From Minisyncoccota bacterium (GTDB lineage Bacteria > Patescibacteriota > Minisyncoccia > Phycocordibacterales > CAIJYI01), in the NCBI GenBank assembly GCA_023229825.1, contig JALNYN010000003.1:16528-80527 (forward strand): a stretch of DNA of 64,000 nt, written 5' to 3'. The notes beneath the pieces were generated by a model. The model did not search any database. It was not told where the DNA came from and saw only the letters and a program-made list of their open reading frames with translations. Position numbers and translations under genes: made by a program. Positions 2,469 to 34,236 of this stretch are shown piece by piece (position 1 is the stretch's first letter; each line of letters opens with the position of its first letter).

Positions 2469-3192
2469 TTTTGATATACAAAAAGAGGAGGTGGAGAGAA
2501 TTTTCAGAGAGATGATCGTTCCTCAAACTATTGGCGATTGCGCTCCGCAAGAAATAAAGCGGGCGTATATTTTAGGAGGTCAACCGGGAAGCGGTAAAAG
2601 CGCTTTTGCAAGAGAAATATTAAAAACAAACAACAATATCGTTTTTATAAATGGTGATGATTTACGAGCCTATCATCCCGGATATTATTTTTATTTAAAA
2701 GAAAACGATATCGAAGCTGCTGATAGGACGCAAGCCGTATGTAATTTCTGGATCGAGTCTCTTTTGCGGGAATGTATAAAACAAGGATTGGATTTGATCA
2801 TTGAGGGAACCATGCGAAAAAAAGAAGTCCCCATGAAAACGGCAAAAATGCTGGACGATGCGGGATATGAAACAAATCTTGTAGTTATTTCAACACCATA
2901 TGAATTGTCTCTTCGCAGTTTGGAATATCGATACAATGAACTCAGGAGACTTGGACAACCGGCAAGATTTACAAAAAAAGAAAGTCATGATGAAGCATAC
3001 GAGAATATAGAAGGAACTTTATCGGATTTGGTCGCTACCGAGTTATTCAAAAGGTTTTTTATTTACAAAAGATATGATGGCGGATTTGAAGAAAATATAT
3101 TTGAAACAGAGCAAAAAGAAAATGTTTTGCCGATCTTCAGAGAAGGTAGACTGCGGACGCTGGAACACAACGAAAAAGATCGACGACGATAA
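2461..3192 (+). CDS. zeta-toxin family P-loop kinase (UDP-GlcNAc kinase-type toxin)
   Basis: Walker A 'GGQPGSGKS' near the N-terminus, size about 240 aa, small upstream overlapping ORF; followed by a rho-independent terminator at 3234-3267. Confidence 0.6.
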   Translation: MNNFDIQKEEVERIFREMIVPQTIGDCAPQEIKRAYILGGQPGSGKSAFAREILKTNNNIVFINGDDLRAYHPGYYFYLKENDIEAADRTQAVCNFWIESLLRECIKQGLDLIIEGTMRKKEVPMKTAKMLDDAGYETNLVVISTPYELSLRSLEYRYNELRRLGQPARFTKKESHDEAYENIEGTLSDLVATELFKRFFIYKRYDGGFEENIFETEQKENVLPIFREGRLRTLEHNEKDRRR

Positions 3193-3233
3193 AAGGTTCG
3201 ACATTGACAGTGAAATTCGATAAATAATAAAAT

Positions 3234-3267
3234 ACACGGCGTCGAGAGTGACGCCGTGTTTTTTTTG
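3234..3267. terminator. bidirectional rho-independent terminator
   Basis: hairpin 'acacggcgtcgagagtgacgccgtgt' followed by an 8-T run; an A-run precedes it on the other strand. Confidence 0.7.
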
Positions 3268-3297
3268 AAGCGGGGTTTTTAAATCCCTCACTCCTAA

Positions 3298-3804
3298 TTA
3301 TCTTTCTCCAAGTCCGTAACCGCCGCTTCGATATACCGTGTTGGGGCGAGAAATCGCTTCTTTTGCCACATCAGCTAAATAAATTCTATCCCGTACAAAC
3401 TCATTATAAAGTACGGTAAGCTGGCGCGTTCTTTCTTCGCCTGACATATCGCAGCAAGCGCGCAATACTATTTCCGCAGAACCTTCGCCTCCGCAAGAGG
3501 TTGAATTCCAATGCAGAATTTGTTTCGCCCTCAAATATTCGACGATCTCGACGAGTTTTTCCGTTTTGCCCGGCTCTTGCATCATTCCTGCATAGTAGAC
3601 GGCGTTATGATCATGATCATGAGTACGCCAAATGTCTGAAATAGTACCCCATGCTACGCTTCTCAATGGTTCTTGAAGCTTGGTGGCATAGCGTTGGCCT
3701 GCGTCATAATCAGGATAAGGAAATCCGTTATTTACTATGCGAGCGACGGTTTCTCTTACCGCTCTTTCTTCATTGCTTTCTTGCCTTTCTGTTAATTTTT
3801 TCAC
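3298..3804 (-). CDS. hypothetical protein (168 aa)
   Basis: ORF track; coding-like composition; no family recognised. Confidence 0.4.
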   Translation of the reverse strand: MKKLTERQESNEERAVRETVARIVNNGFPYPDYDAGQRYATKLQEPLRSVAWGTISDIWRTHDHDHNAVYYAGMMQEPGKTEKLVEIVEYLRAKQILHWNSTSCGGEGSAEIVLRACCDMSGEERTRQLTVLYNEFVRDRIYLADVAKEAISRPNTVYRSGGYGLGER

Positions 3805-7895: not shown

Positions 7896-8096
7896 CTATT
7901 TTTCTTTTTTAAATAATGCGATCACGTCGCCGCCGTAAGCGATCCTAAAATCGCGCTTTACTTTTTTCCCGTTGATCTTTATCAAGGAATAATCGCTGTA
8001 CGATGCGTTAAAGCCGTTCAATATCGAGGAAATCGTTTCCGGTTCACGAATTTTTCCGACCGTGATGATCGAGGTTGGCACTTTCAAATTTTGCAC
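7896..8096 (-). CDS. small protein (66 aa), possibly S4-like RNA-binding or ThiS/MoaD-like beta-grasp fold
   Basis: 'IKINGKKVKRDFRIAYGGDVIALF' pattern; weak. Confidence 0.3.
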   Translation of the reverse strand: MQNLKVPTSIITVGKIREPETISSILNGFNASYSDYSLIKINGKKVKRDFRIAYGGDVIALFKKEK

Positions 8097-15525: not shown

Positions 15526-15779
15526 GCACCGAAACGCACCCATATTTCGTTTACCTCCTAAAATGCGCCGACGGCACATACTATTGCGGCATCACCACCG
15601 ACCTAATCCGAAGGGTCACAGAGCACAACACCTCGCCCAAAGCCGCCAAATACACCCGAGCCAGAAGACCGGTAGTTTTGGCCTATTCAAAACAATACGA
15701 AACCCGAAGCCAAGCCAGCAAAGAAGAAGCAAGGATCAAGAAATTATCACGTACGGAAAAGACAAAGATTGCGAGATAA
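15522..15779 (+). CDS. GIY-YIG nuclease-domain protein (UPF0213/YhbQ-like)
   Basis: 'YFVYLLKCADGTYYCGITTDLIRRVTEHN'. Confidence 0.8.
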   Translation: MSTETHPYFVYLLKCADGTYYCGITTDLIRRVTEHNTSPKAAKYTRARRPVVLAYSKQYETRSQASKEEARIKKLSRTEKTKIAR

Positions 15780-16285
15780 AATCCATATAAAATGAATACG
15801 CAAATTACCAGAAGTTTTTGGGTGTTATCGAAAAAGCAAAGATCTCTTGTGAAAACAACGGCGAAGTTATCCACAACCATTTCGTTGATACTACCGACAT
15901 GGTCGGCATCGGTGAACTTTATCAAAAAACAGCAAATAGTCCTTGCTGTTTTTTGATATTTCCGGCGGGGCTCCCCGTTCCCGCAACGCCATCTGGTGGC
16001 CGCCGACTGGGGAGATTTACGACATCAGAAATTAAGTAATCAGTATATATCAACAAAAAACAAAGGCAATAAATAATAGTTGCTTTTTTCTTCCCATCAG
16101 TTTATTATTATCTTGTCGCCCCCCAATAGGTAGTATGTAAAATGGTTAAGCCCATAATTTTCGCTCCTGATCAAAAAAGGGCGATGGTTTCCAGTAGCGC
16201 TTAACCGTTTGGTAAGCATACCCTATTGGGCGACAACCATCGTCCTTTTTTGGTGGAAATATTTTATAACTAATAATGAAATTTC

Positions 16286-19200
16286 ATGAACGAGAAAAAA
16301 TATATTTGGGATGAATTTACGGGGAAATATGGGCTTTCTAAAACACTAAGTTTTGAGTTAGAACCGACAGAAAAAACTAGGGATTTTTTAAAAACTAACA
16401 AGGTTTTTGAGAGAGATCAAACGATTGATAACAGTTATAATCAGTCTAAGTTTTATTTTGATAAATTACATCAAGAATTTCTTAAAAATACTTTTTCCGA
16501 AGAGAATGTTGTATCGTTGAATTTCTGCAAGTTTGCAAAGTCTTTTGATGAAAAAACAAAAGAACTAATAAAAATACGAAAAGATTTAAATATAGCTAGA
16601 AAAGAAAAAATGAACAGTAATATTTTACAAAAAAAACTTATTGATGCTGAAGATGAAATAAGAAAAGAAAAAGAAGAATTATATAAAAAAATTCGTATTC
16701 TTATGGACACAGAGGCGGAAAAATGGAAAAAAACATATGCAAATAAACAACTTGAAGGCGGAAAAAAGATAATTTTTACCAAAAAGGAAAAGAAGGAAAA
16801 TAAAAATCTGAAGGGTGTCGGATTTCTCACCTCCTCCTCAATTTTACAAGTGCTGAAATATGAATTTCCTGCCTCAAAAGATATGGAGTTTATCTCACAA
16901 GGGTGGCCAAGTTTATTTGTGAAAGCTGATGAAACTCTAGATAATTATGGAGGTAAACAATATATATTTGATAGTTTTGATAAGTTCTCTGGATATTTAA
17001 CAAAATTTCAAGAAACACGAAAAAATATTTACGCCGAAAATGGCATTACTACGGCTGTTTCAACACGCATCCTGAGCAACTTAGAATTATTTTTGGTGAA
17101 CAAAAAAACTTTTGAAAGCAAATATGCCAATAGTTACAAAGATATCAGGGGTTTTAAAAATACAGATATTTTTAATATAAAACATTATGAAAAATGCTTG
17201 CTGCAGGAAGGAATTGAATCTTCTGAAGAATCCGGCGAGCTCGGAGATTCATATAATAAAATTATTGGTGATCTCAATAAATCAATAAAAGAACATCGCG
17301 ACCAGAAAGAGAGTGATGCTAAAAAAAATAAGGACAAAACGTTCAAGCGCGCCGACTACCCTTTGTTCAAAACTCTTGAAAAACAAATTCTGGGGGAAGT
17401 GCAAAAAGAAAGACAATTAATAGAAGCAACTGAAAACAGCACGGAGGAAGAGGTTTTTTTGAAGCGCTTCCGTGAATTTGCGAAATTAAATGAAAAGCAT
17501 TTTGATTCCGCAAAGAAGATTATGGAAAAACTGTTTTCCAGCGATGATTTTATCGCGGAATACGGTGGTATATATGTAAAAAATTCTTCAGTAAACACCA
17601 TCTCTCGGCGTTGGTTTTCGGATGTATATAACTTTGAAAAAAATCTTCCGCAAAGTTCAAAAACAAAGGCGGAAAGTGATTATATAAAAATAAAAAAATA
17701 TATATCGTTAGCAGATATAAAAAACTCTTTGGATCAATTAGAAGGAAAGCCATTTAAAGAAGATTATTACAAAAAAAATATTGTTGATTCGACAAAAAGT
17801 ATTTGGGAACAGTTTTTGATGATTTGGAAATTCGAGTTTAGTAGCCTGTTCAAGGATGTTACAAAAGAAAATAACGAAGTAATTCATGGCTATGACTTTT
17901 ATTTCAAGTTAGCAGATAAATTATCTTCATTTTCAAAAGAGAGAAAACCAGAAGAAATTGCAATTGTAAAAAATTACTCAGATTCCTCCTTACGAATTTT
18001 CCAAATGATGAAATACGTTGCTCTTGATGGATATGATATAGATAAACTTTCAGGGGTGAGCGGAGACTTTTATTCAGAAATGGACGAATATATAAGGAAT
18101 TTTCCGTTCAACCAGTATTACAACGCATTTCGCAACTTTGTTACTAAAAAACCTTACGACAACGATAAAATAAAACTCAATTTTGAAAAAGGTACTTTAT
18201 TAAATGGATGGGCAGAAAGTCCAAGGGGCAATGCACAATACTGCGGATATATTTTAAGAAAAAAAGATGATTATTTTTTGGCTGTTACCGAGTATACTCA
18301 TTTTCTAGATATAGAAAAATACCACCTCGCCACCAAAGATTATAATTCATATGAAAAATTGGAATACAGTTCCCTTGATTGGGGCAAGAATATAGCCGGT
18401 GGTAAAGTTTATGCTTCCTTCACAAAAACTCGATATGGAGAAAGCATTTCATATCAAGACCATAAGACGATATTAACCAAGCAACAACATGTTTCTTTGC
18501 TTAAAGATATTATAAAAGATAAATACGTTGCTCGTTTTCCAGAATTAAAAGCTTTTATTAAACAACATTTTGAAGACGTTCTCGAAATGCAAAAATCTTT
18601 TGCTAATTTGACTTTAGGCGGAATAAGTTTCCAAAACATTAGCGGATCATGGGTGGATAAGCAGGTTATTGAAGAAGAAGGTAAAAAACATGAATTATAC
18701 TTATTTCGTATTTTGAATCGAGACCTGAGAATAAAAAGAACCTCATCTAGTAATGTTCATACGTTATATTGGAACGCGTTGTTTTCTGAAGAAAATTTAG
18801 AACAACAAATATTTGATATTCTCGGGAATGCTGAAATATTTTATAGAAAAGCAAGTGTGGGTTTAAAAGTCCGTAAAAATGTAAAAGGAGAAGAGTACAT
18901 AAACAAAAAAGGCGAAAAAATAGTTGAAGGACGAAGATACTCTAGAGATATAATTTCTCTTCATATACCCATTGCACTAAATTCGCACAAAAAATCCGTT
19001 AAACCGGGACAATTCAATAAGGAAATAAATAGATACATTTCCAAAAGTTATAGGGACGAAAATGTAAATGTTATCGGACTGGACCGGGGAGAAAAACACT
19101 TAGTGTATTATTCTATTGTTAACCCGAGAGGAGAAATAATTGACCAGGGAAGTCTGAACAAAATTAATGGTATTGATTATTATGAAAAATTAATAACTCG

Positions 19201-20374
19201 AGAAAAAGAACGATTAGAAAATAGACAATCTTGGAACCCTGTATGTAAAATAAAGGATTTAAAAAGGGGTTATGTTTCTCAGGTTGTTAGGATGATTGCG
19301 GATCTTGCTGTTAAACATAACGCAATAATTGTAATGGAAGACCTCAACATGCGGTTTAAACAAATTCGCGGAGGTATTGAAAGGAGTGTATATCAGCAGT
19401 TAGAAAAACAACTTATTGATAAGTTTGGGTATTTAGTGTTTAAAAACAATAAACCAGAAGAAGGTGGTAACGTGCTAAATGGGTATCAACTTTCTGCACC
19501 TTTTGATACATTTGAGAAGATGGGAAAGCAAACAGGCATTATTTTCTACACACAGGCCGAATACACATCAATCACAGACCCCCTCTCAGGATTTAGAAAA
19601 AATATTTATATCAGCAATTCCGCTCCTCAAATTAAAATTAAGGAAGCTGTACAAAAATTTGATGCGATAGGGTGGGATAATGAATTTCAAAGTTATTATT
19701 TCCAATATGACCCAAGCGTCTTTTCTGATACAAATTTCGTTTTTGCTAAAAGATGGACAGTGTATGCCAAAGTTCCACGTATTGCACGAGAAAAAGATGA
19801 GAATGGTTATTGGCGATATAACTCGATTGATATAAATCAAAAATTCAAAGAATTATTTCAGTTATGGGGGTTTGACAACCTGGAAGGGGATATTTGGGAA
19901 CAAATTCAAGAAAAAGAAAGTGCTGGGTCGCTGAAAGGAGAAAAAGTTTTTGGTAAAAAGCCGCGAAGTTTTTATCATTCGTTCATTTATTTGTTTAATC
20001 ATATTCTCCAGTTACGGAATTCTTATTCGGAGCAGTGGGTGAGGGAAGAAATTAATGAAAAAATTTGCATTAAAAAAATTGGTGAAAATATTGATTTTAT
20101 CGCATCACCAGTAAAACCATTTTTTAGTACGTATGCAATAAATACTAAAAAAGAGGTTTTGTCTCCGAAAAATTTTTCCAAATTTGAAAAAATAATTATT
20201 TCTCAGGATAAAAAAAGAATAGAGGAAGAATTCAACGGAGACGCAAATGGTGCCTATAATATCGCAAGAAAAGGAATCATGTTACTGGAAAAAATCAAAA
20301 AAAACCCTGAAAAACCTGAATTATATATTTCAAAAACTGACTGGGACGAATTTGTAACGAAAGACACAAAATAA
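16286..20374 (+). CDS. cas12a: type V-A CRISPR single-effector nuclease Cas12a (Cpf1), 1362 aa
   Basis: N-terminus 'FTGKYGLSKTLSFELEPTEKT' (Cpf1 WED-I signature); RuvC-I 'IGLDRGEKHLVYY'; RuvC-II 'AIIVMEDLNMRFKQIRGGIERSVYQQLEKQLIDKF'; RuvC-III 'DANGAYNIARKG'; no HNH; adjacent cas4-cas1-cas2 and an array whose repeat ends in UCUACUUUUGUAGAU. Confidence 0.9.
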   Translation: MNEKKYIWDEFTGKYGLSKTLSFELEPTEKTRDFLKTNKVFERDQTIDNSYNQSKFYFDKLHQEFLKNTFSEENVVSLNFCKFAKSFDEKTKELIKIRKDLNIARKEKMNSNILQKKLIDAEDEIRKEKEELYKKIRILMDTEAEKWKKTYANKQLEGGKKIIFTKKEKKENKNLKGVGFLTSSSILQVLKYEFPASKDMEFISQGWPSLFVKADETLDNYGGKQYIFDSFDKFSGYLTKFQETRKNIYAENGITTAVSTRILSNLELFLVNKKTFESKYANSYKDIRGFKNTDIFNIKHYEKCLLQEGIESSEESGELGDSYNKIIGDLNKSIKEHRDQKESDAKKNKDKTFKRADYPLFKTLEKQILGEVQKERQLIEATENSTEEEVFLKRFREFAKLNEKHFDSAKKIMEKLFSSDDFIAEYGGIYVKNSSVNTISRRWFSDVYNFEKNLPQSSKTKAESDYIKIKKYISLADIKNSLDQLEGKPFKEDYYKKNIVDSTKSIWEQFLMIWKFEFSSLFKDVTKENNEVIHGYDFYFKLADKLSSFSKERKPEEIAIVKNYSDSSLRIFQMMKYVALDGYDIDKLSGVSGDFYSEMDEYIRNFPFNQYYNAFRNFVTKKPYDNDKIKLNFEKGTLLNGWAESPRGNAQYCGYILRKKDDYFLAVTEYTHFLDIEKYHLATKDYNSYEKLEYSSLDWGKNIAGGKVYASFTKTRYGESISYQDHKTILTKQQHVSLLKDIIKDKYVARFPELKAFIKQHFEDVLEMQKSFANLTLGGISFQNISGSWVDKQVIEEEGKKHELYLFRILNRDLRIKRTSSSNVHTLYWNALFSEENLEQQIFDILGNAEIFYRKASVGLKVRKNVKGEEYINKKGEKIVEGRRYSRDIISLHIPIALNSHKKSVKPGQFNKEINRYISKSYRDENVNVIGLDRGEKHLVYYSIVNPRGEIIDQGSLNKINGIDYYEKLITREKERLENRQSWNPVCKIKDLKRGYVSQVVRMIADLAVKHNAIIVMEDLNMRFKQIRGGIERSVYQQLEKQLIDKFGYLVFKNNKPEEGGNVLNGYQLSAPFDTFEKMGKQTGIIFYTQAEYTSITDPLSGFRKNIYISNSAPQIKIKEAVQKFDAIGWDNEFQSYYFQYDPSVFSDTNFVFAKRWTVYAKVPRIAREKDENGYWRYNSIDINQKFKELFQLWGFDNLEGDIWEQIQEKESAGSLKGEKVFGKKPRSFYHSFIYLFNHILQLRNSYSEQWVREEINEKICIKKIGENIDFIASPVKPFFSTYAINTKKEVLSPKNFSKFEKIIISQDKKRIEEEFNGDANGAYNIARKGIMLLEKIKKNPEKPELYISKTDWDEFVTKDTK

Positions 20375-20412
20375 CACGCATATTGCCAAATAGTCAAATA
20401 TATGCTATATAA

Positions 20413-20448
20413 AAAGTCGGGTGCTCTTGAATGAGCGCCCGACTTTTT
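20413..20448 (+). terminator. rho-independent terminator downstream of cas12a
   Basis: 'agtcgggtgctcttgaatgagcgcccgact' hairpin plus T6. Confidence 0.65.
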
Positions 20449-20464
20449 TAATAGTGAAAAATCC

Positions 20465-21007
20465 ATGGAACAATACATTCAAATATCTAAGATAAACGAC
20501 TTTATTTTCTGCCCGAAATCGGTCTTTTTGCATAGCATTTACGAGGGTTTTAAGGAAAGCATGTACCATGATACCCCTCAAATCGTCGGCAAGAAAAACC
20601 ATGAGAATATAGACAAGGGGAAATACTCGTCTGCCAAGCGATACCTACAAGGAACGCCCGTATATTGCCGCCAGTACAACGTAATGGGAAATATTGATGT
20701 ATATGACCAGCAGACGAAATCATTGATCGAACGCAAAACAAAGATCAAGAAAATTTATGACGGGTACAGATATCAGCTGTATGCCCAATATTTCGCATTG
20801 AAAGAAATGGGATATGACGTGGAAAAACTTTTTCTTCATTCCCTCAAAGACAACAAGCGATATGAAATACCATTACCGGACTATTCAGAAACTACAAAAT
20901 TTGAAAAAACGGTTCGCTGGATGCAAAAATTCGATATTCTTTGGAGCGACGTAAACGTTAGTCCGGAGAAGTGCGACAACTGCATTTATCGGCCCTTATG
21001 TCATTAA
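20465..21007 (+). CDS. cas4: Cas4 (RecB-like nuclease with Fe-S cysteines)
   Basis: N-terminal 'FIFCPKS' Cys plus C-terminal 'CDNCIYRPLC' Cys cluster; position between effector and cas1. Confidence 0.8.
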   Translation: MEQYIQISKINDFIFCPKSVFLHSIYEGFKESMYHDTPQIVGKKNHENIDKGKYSSAKRYLQGTPVYCRQYNVMGNIDVYDQQTKSLIERKTKIKKIYDGYRYQLYAQYFALKEMGYDVEKLFLHSLKDNKRYEIPLPDYSETTKFEKTVRWMQKFDILWSDVNVSPEKCDNCIYRPLCH

Positions 21008-21018
21008 TAACTACCTAT

Positions 21019-21987
21019 ATGATGTCATTGCCTGATTTTAAAGAAAAACAAATATTGCTTGTCAGAGCTGAATGGGGACAAAAATGTTCGCTTCGTTTTT
21101 TCAATGATAACATCGTATTTCGTAAAGACGGGAAGATCGTCAATCGCGCTTCGTGCCACAAGGTCTTTGCGGTTTTTGTCGTGGGAGATATCGCGATCAC
21201 AACCGGACTTATCAAAGACGCCATAAAGTTTGGAATATCGATCTTTTTATTGCGCAACAATTTTGAAACATACTCGACATTTTTGTCTCAAGCGGAAGGG
21301 AATTATCTTTTACGGCAAAAACAGTATCGGATGCCGGAAGCGGATGAGTTTTTTGCGTCGAAAAAAATCGTTCAAAACAAGATCGATAACCAAATCTCAC
21401 TGGTGCGAAGTACCGGAAAATGGAAGAATACTGCGGCAAGACGGAAAGAAATGATCGCGGATCAGTTAGAAAATATCATTGATAATCAAGAACTTTTAGG
21501 AGTGGAGGGGAACAATGCCCGAGTGTTTTTTGAAGAATATTTTGATGTTATCGGCTGGCGGAGACGAGCGCCTCGCGACAGGGAAGACATTCCGAATTTT
21601 TTGATGGATATAGGCTATACCTATCTTTTTCATTTTGTTGATTCGCTCCTTCGCCTTTATGGATTCGATACGTACAAAGGAATGTATCACAAATTATTTT
21701 TTCAAAGACGCTCGCTTGCTTGCGATATCATGGAACCGTTTCGGTGCATTATCGATAAACAAATTCGCAAGGCCTACAACTTAAAACAGATCAACGAAAA
21801 GGATTTCAAGGTTGAACAGGGGAAGTATGTGCTGCCGTTTGAGAACAACCAAAAATACTCGCAAATTTTCATGAAAGCGATTATGGACAACAAGGAAGAA
21901 ATCTTTAATTATGTTCGGGAATATTACCGTTTTATGATGAACCAAGAAAATCCGTTCCCGTATTATCAGGTTCACGTAAGTAAGTAA
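21019..21987 (+). CDS. cas1: Cas1 integrase (track ORF starts at 20971; an ATG at 21019 avoids overlap with cas4)
   Basis: Size, position, Cas1-like N-terminus 'ILLVRAEWGQKCSLRFFNDNIVF', acidic/His-containing C-terminal half. Confidence 0.8.
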   Translation: MMSLPDFKEKQILLVRAEWGQKCSLRFFNDNIVFRKDGKIVNRASCHKVFAVFVVGDIAITTGLIKDAIKFGISIFLLRNNFETYSTFLSQAEGNYLLRQKQYRMPEADEFFASKKIVQNKIDNQISLVRSTGKWKNTAARRKEMIADQLENIIDNQELLGVEGNNARVFFEEYFDVIGWRRRAPRDREDIPNFLMDIGYTYLFHFVDSLLRLYGFDTYKGMYHKLFFQRRSLACDIMEPFRCIIDKQIRKAYNLKQINEKDFKVEQGKYVLPFENNQKYSQIFMKAIMDNKEEIFNYVREYYRFMMNQENPFPYYQVHVSK

Positions 21988-22003
21988 GAAATTAAATAAA
22001 TTT

Positions 22004-22282
22004 ATGATCATTATCGCCTACGATTTCACCGATAATAAAGTGCGAACAAAATTTTCCAAATTCATCAACAAATTCGGGAAGAAAGTTCAATATTCCGTGT
22101 ATGAGGTACGGAACAGCCCGCGCGTATTGCAAAATATCCTAAAAGAGATAGAATTAACCTATAAGCAGCTGTTTCAGGGTTCGGACAGTATTCTGATTTT
22201 TCAGGTTTGCGAAGGGGACAAAAAGAAGATCGTTCGATACGGATATGCGGCAAATGACAACGAAGAAGTGCTTATTTTTTGA
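22004..22282 (+). CDS. cas2: Cas2
   Basis: 'MIIIAYDFTDNKVRTKFSKFINKFGKKVQYSVYEV'; 92 aa. Confidence 0.85.
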   Translation: MIIIAYDFTDNKVRTKFSKFINKFGKKVQYSVYEVRNSPRVLQNILKEIELTYKQLFQGSDSILIFQVCEGDKKKIVRYGYAANDNEEVLIF

Positions 22283-22524
22283 TCGAAATCAGGAACTTTG
22301 AAATGTAGCGCCTAAATATAGCGTGCTACGCCTGAAGTCTGCTCCCGCAGGCTTTGGTAATACCAAAGGGAGAAATCGTGTGTATGAATTTTTAACCATA
22401 TTTTGCACGGAAACCTCAGTCTTTATTTTCTGAGGATTAAAAATATGGCTCTATTTCAAGGGCGAGTCGTAGCGACATATGTGCGCTATTTGCATCTTTG
22501 TCCTTTAATAGAGCCATTTCCGCT

Positions 22525-24808
22525 GCCAAATTCCTATATTAGATTTCTACTTTTGTAGATACTGAAGTCATAACGTAAGCCACACTGCCAAATTCCTATA
22601 TTAGATTTCTACTTTTGTAGATTATACAACGGCGAAACCTTAAACAAGGCCAAATTCCTATATTAGATTTCTACTTTTGTAGATCGAACAAACGCTCGAT
22701 ATGGGGCATTGCCAAATTCCTATATTAGATTTCTACTTTTGTAGATAATGGGCTTGTAGCTCATTGTAGCGTGGCCAAATTCCTATATTAGATTTCTACT
22801 TTTGTAGATCTTATTATGGATATGTGTTATAATACAGCCAAATTCCTATATTAGATTTCTACTTTTGTAGATCTTATAAAAATATCGCCTTTGCGGTATG
22901 CCAAATTCCTATATTAGATTTCTACTTTTGTAGATATACTATATAATCCCGTTCTCTTTAAGCCAAATTCCTATATTAGATTTCTACTTTTGTAGATCCA
23001 ATTACGCATTTGTTTTCTTGACGAAGCCAAATTCCTATATTAGATTTCTACTTTTGTAGATTAGTAGTTAAACCTAAAAATATGCGAGCCAAATTCCTAT
23101 ATTAGATTTCTACTTTTGTAGATTCGCCTTCGTCGTCGGTATCTCCGAGGCCAAATTCCTATATTAGATTTCTACTTTTGTAGATCTGAGCGACAAACGC
23201 GTTTTATCGCGGCCAAATTCCTATATTAGATTTCTACTTTTGTAGATTTCTTTTGTATTTCATATAATTTTTAAGCCAAATTCCTATATTAGATTTCTAC
23301 TTTTGTAGATTTATAGGAGAAAATACTTTTCATATTGCCAAATTCCTATATTAGATTTCTACTTTTGTAGATTCTTCGTCTTTGGAATGTGTGAAAGTGC
23401 CAAATTCCTATATTAGATTTCTACTTTTGTAGATCCTCGCGTCACGGTCTCTCTGAAGAGAGCCAAATTCCTATATTAGATTTCTACTTTTGTAGATGAT
23501 AACCAGCGTTGCCGAACAAATACCGCCAAATTCCTATATTAGATTTCTACTTTTGTAGATAATAGTCATGTTATTCAATTCCTTAATGCCAAATTCCTAT
23601 ATTAGATTTCTACTTTTGTAGATATTCGGTTGTTTCGTCAACCCCGGCGGGCCAAATTCCTATATTAGATTTCTACTTTTGTAGATGCTTCTTTCCGCCC
23701 ACCCTGTAGACGGCCAAATTCCTATATTAGATTTCTACTTTTGTAGATCAATAACACACGCTGTCAATAGGTGAAGCCAAATTCCTATATTAGATTTCTA
23801 CTTTTGTAGATCACGTTACAAAAGTAACCGCAAACAGCCAAATTCCTATATTAGATTTCTACTTTTGTAGATAAAGCTAATAAAGAGAAAATAAAAGTGC
23901 CAAATTCCTATATTAGATTTCTACTTTTGTAGATCGCGAGTATGAAGAACTCCACGAACAAGCCAAATTCCTATATTAGATTTCTACTTTTGTAGATCTG
24001 TATGGCGCGATTAAGGAGCGGGAGGCCAAATTCCTATATTAGATTTCTACTTTTGTAGATAGACAGAGTAAAGTATAGATATAGAGGCCAAATTCCTATA
24101 TTAGATTTCTACTTTTGTAGATCTTATATGGTACACCCCCTAGGGGGCAAGCCAAATTCCTATATTAGATTTCTACTTTTGTAGATACGAAACACAGCAG
24201 GAAACCATAAAGCCAAATTCCTATATTAGATTTCTACTTTTGTAGATCCGCTGACGCGCTTGCAGTTTTTGTCGCCAAATTCCTATATTAGATTTCTACT
24301 TTTGTAGATCCCTTTCGTGTGACATCCAATTTCGTGCCAAATTCCTATATTAGATTTCTACTTTTGTAGATCGACGGTCGGGCTTACGATCTCCGACGCC
24401 AAATTCCTATATTAGATTTCTACTTTTGTAGATAATTTGCTTTATCAGTTATAAAAAATGCCAAATTCCTATATTAGATTTCTACTTTTGTAGATTCCTC
24501 CCACCATTGCCAAATTCTGACTGCCAAATTCCTATATTAGATTTCTACTTTTGTAGATCCAATATTCTATTGTGTATTTTTTTTGCCAAATTCCTATATT
24601 AGATTTCTACTTTTGTAGATCTCTCGACACAAACACTATATTCGTTTGCCAAATTCCTATATTAGATTTCTACTTTTGTAGATAATCAATATACATTACA
24701 GATGGTTTATGCCAAATTCCTATATTAGATTTCTACTTTTGTAGATTCCGGGGCGATAAGGCAAGACCCGTAGCCAAATTCCTATATTAAATTTCTACTT
24801 TTGTAGAT
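22525..24808 (+). CRISPR. CRISPR array, about 37 copies of a 36-nt repeat GCCAAATTCCTATATTAGATTTCTACTTTTGTAGAT, spacers 25-28 nt; same strand as the cas genes; leader at 22283-22524; last repeat degenerate (G->A)
   Basis: Directly visible periodicity of 62-63 nt; 3' end of the repeat forms the tctac-tttt-gtaga hairpin characteristic of Cas12a crRNA. Confidence 0.95.
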
Positions 24809-24872
24809 TTTACATATTTACATTAATTACAGTAAACTTGTAAAAGTCTGTTGGGCATGATATAATGGATAT

Positions 24873-25610
24873 ATGTCTACGTGGATACAAAATAAGCGGA
24901 AATTATCGGGGCTTTCTCAGGAAGAAGTCTCGAAAAGCTTGGATATTTCTCGTCCGACCTACGTTAAACTTGAACAAGGGAAGATAAAGCCGAACGAACA
25001 GCAAAAGGCAATTTTGGCTCGATTGTTCGAGGTTTCGGAAGATGTTTTTGAAAAAAGTTCGGCAGAGCCGGAACAAATTTCCGGCACCGTTGAAATTCGC
25101 GAAATACCGAAAGAAAATTCTAAAAAATTCAAAGAAGTTTTGCTGTATATTCTCGGCAAAGTGGGAAGTCGGCTGAATATCGGACAGACCGTTCTTTACA
25201 AATTGCTCTATTTTATCGATTTTGATTATTACGAAAAATACGAAGAACAGCTGATCGGCGCGACGTATATCAAAAATATATATGGTCCAACGCCGGTTTC
25301 TTTTGCAAAGATCATAAAACAAATGGAACGTGATGGAAAGCTGGTTGAAGTAAAAAGCAAATATTTTGATAAAGACCAGACAAAATATATTCCGGTCACA
25401 GAGGCGGATGTTTCGAGTTTAAGCGGACAAGAATTGAAGCATATTGACGATGAACTGGAACGGCTCGCGCATTTTTCAGCAAAGCAATTATCCGAACTAT
25501 CTCATAAAGATACTCCTTGGCTCGTTGCGAAGGAAAAGGCGGTTATAAATTACGAACATGTGTTTTACCGACCGGAAGAAACCTCGGTACGCGAATATGA
25601 GCCACTTTAA
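24873..25610 (+). CDS. HTH (XRE-family) + DUF4065/Panacea-domain protein, putative PanA-type antitoxin
   Basis: N-terminal 'LSQEEVSKSLDISRPTYVKLEQG' HTH; C-terminal 'LYKLLYFIDFDYY','YGPTPVSF','LSHKDTPW' matching DUF4065 landmarks. Confidence 0.55.
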   Translation: MSTWIQNKRKLSGLSQEEVSKSLDISRPTYVKLEQGKIKPNEQQKAILARLFEVSEDVFEKSSAEPEQISGTVEIREIPKENSKKFKEVLLYILGKVGSRLNIGQTVLYKLLYFIDFDYYEKYEEQLIGATYIKNIYGPTPVSFAKIIKQMERDGKLVEVKSKYFDKDQTKYIPVTEADVSSLSGQELKHIDDELERLAHFSAKQLSELSHKDTPWLVAKEKAVINYEHVFYRPEETSVREYEPL

Positions 25611-25947
25611 TCAACTGCCCGAATTTGAGAAAGACCTTAAAAAGCTTTCTAAAAAATATCCTACACTTCGTCAAGATCTCAATGATCTGGAGGATGTTTT
25701 GCATACTTTACCGACAGGAAGTGGTAAAAATTTTACCATTATTCACCATTCTGAAAAAGTAAAACTCGTCAAAACTCGCCTTGCGTGCAAAAGTTTGAAA
25801 AATAGAGCGATGAGGGTAATATATGCATACCATGATGATACTGTCACTTTTGTCTACATAGAAATCTATTTTAAAGGAAATAAGGCAAACGAAGACCGCA
25901 AACGTATTTCTGAATATTTGAAAAGTAGATCTCCTTCACTCCGGTAA
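25597..25947 (+). CDS. RelE/ParE-superfamily toxin-like protein (ATG at 25597 overlapping the upstream stop by 14 nt; track ORF is 25558..25947)
   Basis: 'FEKDLKKLSKKYPTLRQDLNDLEDVL' and C-terminal 'RVIYAYHDDTVTFVYIEIY' resemble the RelE/StbE-ParE fold signature. Confidence 0.5.
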   Translation: MSHFNQLPEFEKDLKKLSKKYPTLRQDLNDLEDVLHTLPTGSGKNFTIIHHSEKVKLVKTRLACKSLKNRAMRVIYAYHDDTVTFVYIEIYFKGNKANEDRKRISEYLKSRSPSLR

Positions 25948-29594: not shown

Positions 29595-29708
29595 GATACC
29601 AATATACGAATGAGTACCAATATACAAATGAATACGAATACGACCACCACAGTAAATGTCCGTATTCGTATTCATTCGTATCATTCGTAAAAATTCGTAT
29701 ATTGGTAT
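29595..29708. mobile_element. about 114-bp MITE-like palindromic element, copy 1 (TIRs gataccaatatacgaat / attcgtatattggtatc)
   Basis: Near-identical copy at 34133-34236; internal dyad symmetry. Confidence 0.6.
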
Positions 29709-29713
29709 ATTTA

Positions 29714-34132: not shown

Positions 34133-34236
34133 GATACCAATATACGAATTTTTACGAATATACAAATGAATACGAATCCGGAAACGGCGTATTCGTTGCC
34201 ATTCGTATCATTCGTAAAAATTCGTATATTGGTATC
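34133..34236. mobile_element. about 114-bp MITE-like palindromic element, copy 2
   Basis: Same TIRs as the copy at 29595-29708. Confidence 0.6.

Follow-up and report, generated by a model that had tools for sequence, protein, structure and literature searches.

The type V-A locus

We analysed a 64-kb window (the whole stretch of 64,000 nucleotides, positions 16,528 to 80,527 of contig JALNYN010000003.1 from a Minisyncoccota bacterium), in which a type V-A CRISPR-Cas locus occupies positions 16286–24808. The genes cas12a, cas4, cas1 and cas2 are followed in this order by a CRISPR array, everything on the + strand (Table 1), and an RNA element of ~140 nt lies directly upstream of cas12a. An initial annotation, made from the letters alone, had described a complete V-A locus of this layout; all of its parts are present where it had placed them, and models specific for type V Cas4 and Cas1 match. 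The RNA element lies just outside the segment that it covered and was missed there. The genes flanking the locus are housekeeping genes (encoding an M13 peptidase, an amino-acid kinase family protein, a cyclophilin, NUDIX, SpoIIM, HIT and GIY-YIG proteins, an M23 peptidase and a family-28, MurG-type glycosyltransferase), indicating a chromosomal location. The locus is an intact chromosomal type V-A CRISPR-Cas system of a Patescibacteria (Paceibacterota) genome. By itself it is ordinary: its effector is an ortholog, annotated by automatic means, from a family that is very well known.

Table 1. Coordinates of the features of the locus, in positions of the 64-kb window.
Feature	Coordinates	Strand	Description and evidence
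Leader promoter (predicted)	16080–16108	+	-35 TTGCTT (16080–16085), 17-nt spacer, -10 TATTAT (16103–16108); predicted start ~G16115
Candidate two-state leader RNA	16113–16254	+	Conservation, covariance model, covariation, two folds
S1	16115–16137	+	GTCGCC...AATAGG..GTATG
P2 5' strand (end of a variable region)	16161–16168	+	TCGCTCCT
G-rich segment	16173–16189	+	AAAAAAGGGCGATGGTT
J	16191–16197	+	CCAGTAG
P3 hairpin	16199–16217	+	GCTT(A)ACC-GTTT-GGTAAGC
S1'	16217–16234	+	CATACCCTATTGGGCGAC
Terminator 3' strand and T-run	16235–16251	+	AACCATCGTCC + TTTTTT; cas12a ATG at 16286
cas12a (cpf1)	16286–20374	+	1362 aa; TIGR04330, Pfam and PDB matches; GenBank MCK9351402.1
Intrinsic-terminator hairpin cas12a/cas4	20411–20448	+	A-tract, 16-bp stem, T-run
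cas4	20465–21007	+	180 aa; RecB-like nuclease, N-terminal Cys and C-terminal CxxCx5C; TIGR04328 (type V Cas4) 1.6e-62; Pfam Cas_Cas4; GenBank MCK9351403.1
cas1	21019–21987	+	322 aa from ATG 21019; TIGR04329 (type V Cas1) 343 bits, cutoff 300
cas2	22004–22282	+	92 aa; general cas2 model TIGR01573; Pfam CRISPR_Cas2; GenBank MCK9351405.1
CRISPR leader	22283–22524	+	242 nt; blocks AAACCTCAGTCTTTAT (22411–22426) and ATTTGCATCTTT (22488–22499); alignment of nine leaders, blastn
CRISPR array	22525–24808	+	37 repeats of 36 nt, 36 unique spacers of 25–28 nt; repeat parsing

The effector matches the NCBIfam equivalog model for Cas12a/Cpf1 with 546.1 bits, the cutoff being 300. In Pfam, RuvC_1 (3e-79) and NUC (7.4e-17) are recognised, REC1 (33.8 bits) falls slightly under its cutoff of 37.4, and an HNH domain was not found. 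This agrees with the split RuvC nuclease without HNH that had been proposed, the quoted motifs of which were all found, and the N-terminal Cpf1/Cas12a signature FTGKYGLSKTLSFELEPTEKT is likewise in place. A phmmer search of the PDB sequences retrieved Cas12a chains only, with E-values of 8e-116 for ReChb and of about 1e-95, 1e-89 and 1e-87 for FnCas12a, AsCas12a and LbCas12a. Profile and similarity searches thus bear out the identity first given to the protein. The exact protein is already named Cas12a/Cpf1 in GenBank, where it is encoded on an 81-kb contig, and the closest other proteins are at most 62% identical. When the C-terminal 763 aa were used as query, 807 representatives at 50% clustering matched with E ≤ 1e-30. 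A cluster at 48% identity includes KKT48220.1 from Parcubacteria bacterium GW2011_GWC2_44_17, which we take to be PbCpf1, one of the 16 orthologs surveyed by Zetsche et al. 2015 and the nearest tested ortholog. As to Cas1, the mechanical reading frame (20971–21987) begins at GTG 20971; the identical public contig calls the ATG at 21019 that is listed in Table 1, for a protein of 322 aa.

The RuvC D/E/D catalytic residues, whose absence would have refuted the initial annotation by its own terms, are conserved on alignment to FnCas12a and Lb2Cas12a. The three motifs read GLDRGE (D933), VMEDLN (E1018) and GDANGAY (D1319). D917 and E1006 of FnCas12a (native numbering of PDB 5mga/8y0b) align with D933 and E1018, and GDANGAYNIARKG aligns with DADANGAYNIARKG of Lb2Cas12a in the DANGAY region, which gives D1319. 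The Nuc arginine, R1244, lies in LQLRNS and was aligned to LQMRNS of Lb2Cas12a in a weak local alignment. The minor-groove lysine that reads the protospacer-adjacent motif (PAM), in ...MLPKVFF, aligns with K707 in ...AGGKVYA; since this lysine is conserved, the 5' PAM of the present Cas12a is, by analogy, probably T-rich.

The residues with which Cas12a cleaves the precursor of the CRISPR RNA (pre-crRNA) lie in WED-III and are H843, K852 and K869 in FnCas12a and H800, K809 and K860 in AsCas12a. In the window the corresponding segment, 852–885 (FYRKASVGLKVRKNVKGEEYINKKGEKIVEGRRY), has no His, and the WED-III segment is ~10 residues shorter than in FnCas12a. LIKDKRF of FnCas12a aligns to IVEGRRY, so that Glu881 stands in the place of K869, and R854, R884 and Y885 are kept. 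Self-processing of pre-crRNA had been expected from the Cas12a assignment: equivalents of H843, K852 and K869 are not recognisable, and self-processing is plausible but uncertain from the sequence, in which K874 and K878 may or may not replace the missing lysines. Among about 180–190 Cas12a sequences classified by their RNase motif, 77 have both the His and the Lys, 40 and another 21 have neither the Lys nor the loop His (the 21 carry a His directly before KRY), and the K869 equivalent is missing in ~81. The subclade of the query (P0008, P0009 and P0012, with VEG-RRY) has none of the classified His/Lys forms. Judged from this classification, the lack of the canonical RNase residues is a lineage property.

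Tandem Repeats Finder and a repeat finder detected the array as a 62-nt period at 22523–24808, and parsing resolved exactly 37 repeats of 36 nt, the number that had been given as approximate. Thirty-six of them are identical (GCCAAATTCCTATATTAGATTTCTACTTTTGTAGAT) and the last one (24773–24808) has a single G>A change, a regularity that cannot be due to chance. Because this only degenerate repeat sits at the far end, the 242 nt that follow cas2 are taken to be the leader, and the leader-proximal end of the array to lie there. In each repeat, the 3' 20 nt (AGAUUUCUACUUUUGUAGAU) constitute the Cas12a handle, all 37 copies ending in ...AGATTTCTACTTTTGTAGAT, and the 3' end folds as a UCUAC-UUUU-GUAGA hairpin followed by U (-4.8 kcal/mol, z = -4.1). 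The initial annotation had the UCUAC/GUAGA stem and the UUUU loop right and the letters ...AAUUUCUACUUUUGUAGAU wrong, since 36 of the 37 repeats read ...UAGAUUUCUACUUUUGUAGAU. The handle starts with AGAUUUCUAC / AGAUUU, not with AAUUU, and AAAUUUCUAC occurs only in the terminal degenerate repeat. Position -19 is a G in 36/37 repeats and an A, G or C in related arrays; A(-18) is constant. Outside the array, sequences complementary to the repeat stay below 11 nt throughout the window, the best match being a single 10-mer at 25859. The claim that 15.8–22.5 kb holds no such complement and no evident trans-activating CRISPR RNA (tracrRNA) extends to all 64 kb. Rfam gave no match at gathering score in the window, and no tRNAs were found in it.

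Nine related V-A CRISPR leaders share AAACCTnAGTCTTTAT ~100 nt and ATTTGCATCTTT ~35 nt before the first repeat, and these blocks are probably promoter and integration signals. Most of the nine leaders, not including that of the window, have AAAAGTCGT and then a hairpin between both blocks. The GTCGT motif of the CRISPR leader resembles the GTCGYCC strands of the leader RNA described below, a likeness that may be fortuitous. Spacer 32 (24496–24522, TCCTCCCACCATTGCCAAATTCTGACT) includes the 9 bases with which the repeat begins (GCCAAATTC), which is why Tandem Repeats Finder reports a 28-nt sub-period there; this repeat piece may be due to chance or be a trace of recombination or slipped integration.

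The search for protospacers, which the initial annotation had proposed, gave no reliable target. Within the window, no spacer matched with ≤5 mismatches except for one chance-like case. Comparison of the whole array with 50,697 phage records by blastn returned only chance-level matches that span repeat and spacer, and exact 22–23-nt scans of IMG/VR with spacers 1–5 found none. In a metagenome collection, the leader-proximal spacer 1 (22561–22586) matches 22 of 26 nt in contig SWCD01021301.1 (L002, 5962–5983, - strand). The match sits in an outer-membrane beta-barrel gene, its last four bases are mismatched, and its 5' flank, GAGTTTACG, shows no adjacent T-rich PAM, TTTA being two bases away from the protospacer. 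The contig resembles an ordinary Gram-negative chromosome fragment (porin, phosphoglucomutase, MsrA). By our own rough estimate ~0.1 such 22-mers are expected in the collection, and the match is probably a chance one. If it were real, an episymbiont of the candidate phyla radiation (CPR) that targets the DNA of another bacterium would be notable.

The 90-nt spacer between cas12a and cas4 (20375–20464) folds with -33.3 kcal/mol (z = -7.2) and contains the intrinsic-terminator hairpin listed in Table 1, which a simple terminator scan did not pick up. The terminator that had been noted at 20413–20448 is thus real. The proposal that effector and adaptation modules are separate transcripts has become unlikely: the cas4 ATG follows the T-run after only 16 nt, which leaves no room for a promoter, so that cas4, cas1 and cas2 most likely need read-through. 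They are most likely expressed by attenuated read-through and not as a separate unit, and the terminator would hold their expression to a fraction of that of the effector. Most of the relatives examined lack such a spacer, their cas4 abutting or overlapping cas12a, the exceptions being L025, a related V-A locus (~85 nt), and the PbCpf1 locus.

Relatives of the locus have the same cas12a-cas4-cas1-cas2-array layout and a repeat ending in ...ATTTCTACTTTTGTAGAT. The loci of FnCas12a, AsCas12a and LbCas12a share with it the domain order, the RuvC D/E/D residues, the Nuc arginine, the PAM lysine and the gene layout, as well as a 36-nt repeat ending in UCUAC-N4-GUAGAU and the lack of a tracrRNA. In contrast to these systems, whose solved structures match only distantly (phmmer E 8e-116 to 1e-87), the Cas12a of the window has a shorter WED-III and a GWAESPR motif, and its repeat has a G at -19. 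PbCpf1 belongs to the same CPR-type clade; its WED-III loop is equally short and likewise lacks the canonical His, and its repeat, GCCAAATACCTCTATAAAATTTCTACTTTTGTAGAT, is very similar to that of the window; it differs in keeping a Lys at the K869 position (AYKY-RRY), where the window has Glu. The cas4 region of the PbCpf1 locus appears fragmented, with cas4 called as 107 aa and no cas2 called. Another relative, L004 (contig of SRR22387909, 8001–13791), has a cas12a-cas4-cas1-cas2 operon with a 50% identical Cas12a inside a ribosomal-protein/SecY cluster; neither the leader RNA element nor, in the 6 kb downstream, a CRISPR array was found there.

A conserved RNA element upstream of cas12a

In the 500-nt gap upstream of cas12a, positions 16105–16255 fold with -51.2 kcal/mol (z = -5.1 against shuffles). 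In a blastn comparison with the loci of relatives, 16156–16252 is 84–86% identical to sequences upstream of cas12a in two of them (L005 and L008) and 73% in a third (L003), and the PbCpf1 locus has a 28-nt piece. The Cas12a proteins of these loci are 49–61% identical to the query and the genes upstream differ. The exact 22-nt pattern TATTGGRCGACMACCRTCGTCC, scanned in one genome per species for 185,579 species, occurs in 14 contigs, nearly all labelled Patescibacteria, Parcubacteria or Saccharibacteria. In all 13 loci with enough sequence, cas12a is located downstream on the same strand (directly in 11), and the Cas12a proteins of the pattern loci are 26–53% identical to the query. In total, at least 18 Patescibacteria loci have the element before a cas12a gene, the product of which is 26–61% identical to that of the window. 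No copy away from cas12a loci was found in the sequences scanned, and IMG/VR contained none.

A covariance model built from 15 copies of the element gives one strong match per locus, on the same strand, with 96–131 bits. In the 64-kb window its sole real match is 16113–16254, with 108 bits. The model also recovers copies that belong neither to the training set nor to the pattern loci, with 96 bits in L023, 91 bits in L027 and 44 bits (E = 1e-7) in the divergent L024. It finds no element in the V-A loci L004, L007 and L025, in L026, the only locus of canonical type that was checked, or in the unrelated L002; the window thus differs from the canonical-type locus in that its cas12a is preceded by the leader RNA. 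In the PbCpf1 locus (7958–7985), only the last 28 nt of the element are left (23 bits), as a hairpin GGGCGAC-AACC-GTCGTCC with a T-run ~20 nt before the cas12a ATG, and an annotated ORF of 103 aa covers the remainder. Searched against Rfam 15 at E ≤ 1, the region 15750–16300 gave as sole match an unrelated terminator-like sequence at 15906–15959. Neither Rfam 15 nor literature searches for a cas12a leader, riboswitch or attenuator yielded this RNA, incomplete as these searches were.

All of the 17 element-bearing loci examined have a TTG-type -35, ~17 nt, a TAnnnT -10 and then the conserved GTCGC, which lies 6–7 nt after the -10 in 14 loci and 0–9 nt after it in the other three. The -35 of the window is weak (3/6), hence the promoter was not listed by a simple promoter scan.

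Two folds can be drawn for the element. In the first (OFF) the RNA forms a long rod in which the G-rich and the last segments (AAAAAGGGCGAUGGUU/AACCAUCGUCCUUUUUU) and CCAGUAG/CUAUUGG are paired, with P3 at the tip and the U-run after it, and the rod and U-run (16173–16251) make up a predicted intrinsic terminator. In the second (ON), S1 (GUCGCC...AAUAGG...) pairs with S1' to form P1 and a UCGCYCC copy pairs with the G-rich segment to form P2, leaving the terminator 3' strand free. There are thus three GUCGYCC-like strands in competition for two GGGCGAC strands. That every conserved strand has to fit two partners can by itself explain the unusual conservation of the sequence.

Covariation was observed over both folds, with 25–32 pairs, 8–10 of them compensatory, and compensatory double changes in three helices. 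The OFF fold was obtained independently by RNAalifold (32 pairs, 10 compensatory). On a MAFFT alignment it comprises 27 pairs, with 97% of cells paired and 8 pairs covarying; none of 500 shuffles was as good, and slid controls collapsed. For the ON fold, the energy of the P1 duplex ranges from -22 to -27 kcal/mol in all but one of 16 loci, and its outer helix shows a C-G to U-A change. The non-conserved inner parts of P1 favour the cognate partner (-9.8 versus -6.2 kcal/mol), 25 of 240 non-cognate pairs being better. P2 forms in all copies, and the sequences that flank it vary. In L023, S1' reads TTGTTG for CTATTG, and both of its alternative partners compensate (CAATAG>CAACAA and CCAGTAG>CCGGCAA). 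G.U pairs are frequent, and one of them is the same in each of the 15 aligned loci. The model scores 108 bits on the forward and 42 bits on the reverse strand; these pairs and this asymmetry fix the strand and favour RNA over DNA recognition. The computed energies in the window are -47.3 kcal/mol for ON and -49.0 kcal/mol for OFF, and in most loci the two lie within 2–6 kcal/mol of each other.

Several features of the neighbourhood were recorded in addition. An ORF of 73 codons upstream of the leader RNA (15818–16036, +) resembles the central part of a Bro-N protein of L012 (5519–6346, -), with 31% identity over 61 aa and a pairwise E-value of 6e-7; that protein is encoded just upstream of the leader element there, and L014 has a Bro-N gene (2649–3494, +) between element and cas12a; Bro-N genes, or here a remnant, seem to recur beside these V-A loci. 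The terminator-like hairpin at 15906–15959 (+), AAAAAACAGCAAATAGTCCTTGCTGTTTTTTG, is followed by a GC-rich stretch (15960–16020); its sub-threshold similarity to the Rfam small RNA SpF25 (24 bits, E = 0.11) most likely reflects the terminator shape alone. Right after the array, a two-gene module (24873–25947, +) consists of a gene for a 245-aa, antitoxin-like protein with helix-turn-helix and SocA/Panacea domains and, overlapping it, a gene for a 129-aa protein with a weak match, below the cutoff, to RelE/StbE toxins (E = 5e-4). A sigma-70-like promoter (TTGTAA-17-TATAAT with TG, 24838–24866) precedes the module. Finally, short tandem repeats of 18–19 nt with nearly the same unit are present at 29596–29709 and 34134–34177, ~4.5 kb apart (ATACCAATATACAAATGA, ATACGAATATACAAATGA), and could be binding-site arrays for one regulator.

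Proposed attenuation and alternative readings

Taken together, these data are best explained, and we hold this explanation to be highly probable, by an intact V-A locus in which cas12a stands behind a two-state attenuating leader RNA and the adaptation genes are expressed by read-through. In this model, cas12a would be transcribed from the conserved promoter through a leader RNA with two mutually exclusive folds. The U-run is separated from the cas12a ATG by 34 nt in the window and by ~25 nt in L023, leaving no room for another promoter, so that transcription of cas12a must traverse the element; from this arrangement we infer that cas12a expression depends on conditional read-through (attenuation). 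The later steps follow established Cas12a biology. Transcription of the array would begin in the 242-nt leader and run parallel to that of the cas genes, and the hairpin in the 3' 20 nt of the repeat would be bound by Cas12a, so that no tracrRNA would be needed. The crRNA-Cas12a complex would find a protospacer beside a 5' PAM and cut both DNA strands with the single RuvC site D933/E1018/D1319, aided by Nuc R1244, and Cas4, Cas1 and Cas2 would insert new spacers at the leader end.

As the element is seen only before cas12a, a CRISPR-specific signal is favoured as input of the switch; feedback by free Cas12a, for example, would be a guess. We consider the chances to be even that the element represents a class of cis-regulatory RNA which has not been described before and which serves a CRISPR effector gene alone, in which a bistable terminator/anti-terminator gates cas12a in response to such a signal (free Cas12a, crRNA load or an infection cue), perhaps in a lineage with a rebuilt or lost RNase site. 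A link between the leader element and the loss of the RNase His was considered and rejected, since the element-bearing loci comprise both His-less and xxH-KRY types.

Leaders of this general kind are known. Terminator-based riboswitches and attenuators include the pbuE adenine ON-switch and the TRAP and PyrR leaders. The present element shares with them the promoter-proximal position, the mutually exclusive helices with shared strands and the U-run, and it covaries in both folds. Unlike riboswitches, it has no aptamer match in Rfam 15 and was not found before any metabolic gene.

A number of observations weigh against the attenuation model and the intact system that it supposes. The evidence for the switch is comparative and thermodynamic, and no ligand, known aptamer (Rfam 15) or protein site was identified for the leader RNA. 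A leader peptide was not found either: many copies have an AUG, but frames and stops differ between loci. In two loci an extra gene lies between element and cas12a, encoding a DUF2130 protein in L012 and the Bro-N protein mentioned above in L014. The related V-A loci L004, L007 and L025 are without the element, which is consequently not essential to V-A function. In several loci the terminator is 50–125 nt away from cas12a, enough for a second promoter, and the fold of lowest energy is the OFF rod in most of the loci, as would also fit a constitutively terminated small RNA. On the side of the protein, the GWxxxK PAM motif highlighted by Goltsman et al. (PMC7757703) reads GWAESPR, with a Pro at the position of the Lys and an Arg one residue on, and the canonical His/Lys/Lys triad of the pre-crRNA RNase is unrecognisable. 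No convincing protospacer, and hence no PAM, was derived from the phage collection, from IMG/VR (spacers 1–5) or from the metagenome collection (spacer 1).

The points on distance and folding lead to the most probable of the rivals, an independent gene for a small RNA of ~135 nt that has a promoter of its own and is terminated constitutively; the RNA would act in trans or as an accessory, cas12a being expressed from another promoter or by leaky read-through. The promoter directly before the element and the U-run at its end would suit such a gene, as would the dominance of the terminator rod and the 50–125 nt that follow the U-run in several loci. Small accessory RNAs also exist in other type V systems, for instance the scoutRNA of Cas12c/d, and like scoutRNA and tracrRNA the element is a small structured RNA beside the effector gene in CPR bacteria. 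However, the gap of 34 nt in the window and of ~25 nt in L023 is difficult to reconcile with a separate cas12a promoter, and covariation also backs the alternative fold, which abolishes the terminator. In contrast to scoutRNA and tracrRNA, moreover, no anti-repeat exists in the window: complementarity to the repeat never reaches 11 nt, and the repeat already folds a complete, self-sufficient Cas12a handle. Complementarity between leader RNA and repeat, as expected for a tracr- or scout-like RNA, was rejected as a candidate because it amounts to 5-nt matches only, not conserved between loci. We thus regard a small RNA gene as unlikely, and as clearly less probable than the attenuating leader.

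Three further readings appear very improbable to us. One of them sees the element as DNA, its GGGCGAC / GTCGYCC 7-mers being operator sites for a regulator of the cas12a promoter. Five copies of the 7-mer, in alternating orientation, do lie within 140 bp beside the promoter, but pairing is kept through G.U wobbles, which are mismatches in DNA and one of which is invariant in the 15 aligned loci. Compensatory double changes in three helices, the 108 versus 42 bits of the two strands, the variable P2 hairpin, which keeps its pairing and not its sequence, and the terminal U-run argue in the same direction, and we give little credit to operator sites.

Equally little can be said for autoregulation of the CreR/crlRNA type, in which Cas12a, guided by a degenerate mini-CRISPR RNA, represses the promoter of its own gene. 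Such CreR RNAs are known from V-A systems and were shown for Moraxella bovoculi Cas12a (bioRxiv 10.1101/2023.03.10.532045). The position upstream of cas12a and the exclusive association with this gene are those of the element; like CreR and the long tracrRNA that represses cas9, it would be a CRISPR-specific RNA gene between promoter and effector, plausibly tuning the latter. Yet both of these RNAs direct the effector to DNA as degenerate repeat-spacer units, whereas the element of the window has the features of a terminator/anti-terminator and no repeat-like handle. No TCTAC-N3-6-GTAGAT handle was found on either strand of 15701–16300, with one mismatch allowed per half, and the 20-nt handle does not recur beyond the array even when up to 3 mismatches are allowed; a mini-array or CreR upstream of cas12a was rejected for want of a handle-like repeat. 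Guidance of Cas12a to its own promoter by the 3' part of the leader was rejected as well: a T-rich PAM does not accompany the promoter-side candidate target consistently, the would-be PAM being TTTA in the window and TTTG in L010 but poor in T in L009, L014 and L016.

That the locus is decaying or partly disabled, with RNase residues lost, crRNAs unmatured and interference weak or absent, could account for the absent His, the Glu at the K869 position, the GWxxxK motif that is not kept and the lack of protospacers, but is scarcely credible given four intact ORFs, conserved DNase residues, 36/37 identical repeats, 36 unique spacers and a variation of the RNase site that is common to a large conserved clade and thus speaks for an alternative solution rather than decay.

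Implications for Cas12a and its control

The CRISPR locus itself adds little, being one more ortholog from CPR bacteria that is labelled Cas12a in GenBank. The variation of the RNase site across the CPR clade flags orthologs for which self-processing should be checked before multiplexing use. How the level of CRISPR effectors is set is an active question, to which protein regulators and guide-like RNAs (CreR, long tracrRNA) are the known solutions. If responsive to Cas12a or to a small molecule, the leader RNA, which is small (about 110–160 nt), could be of use as a compact, naturally occurring device to control the expression of Cas12a. Its conservation exceeds that of the Cas12a downstream, its hosts have tiny genomes and few regulators, and if our reading is true, a terminator/anti-terminator RNA before cas12a would be a third kind of effector-level control.

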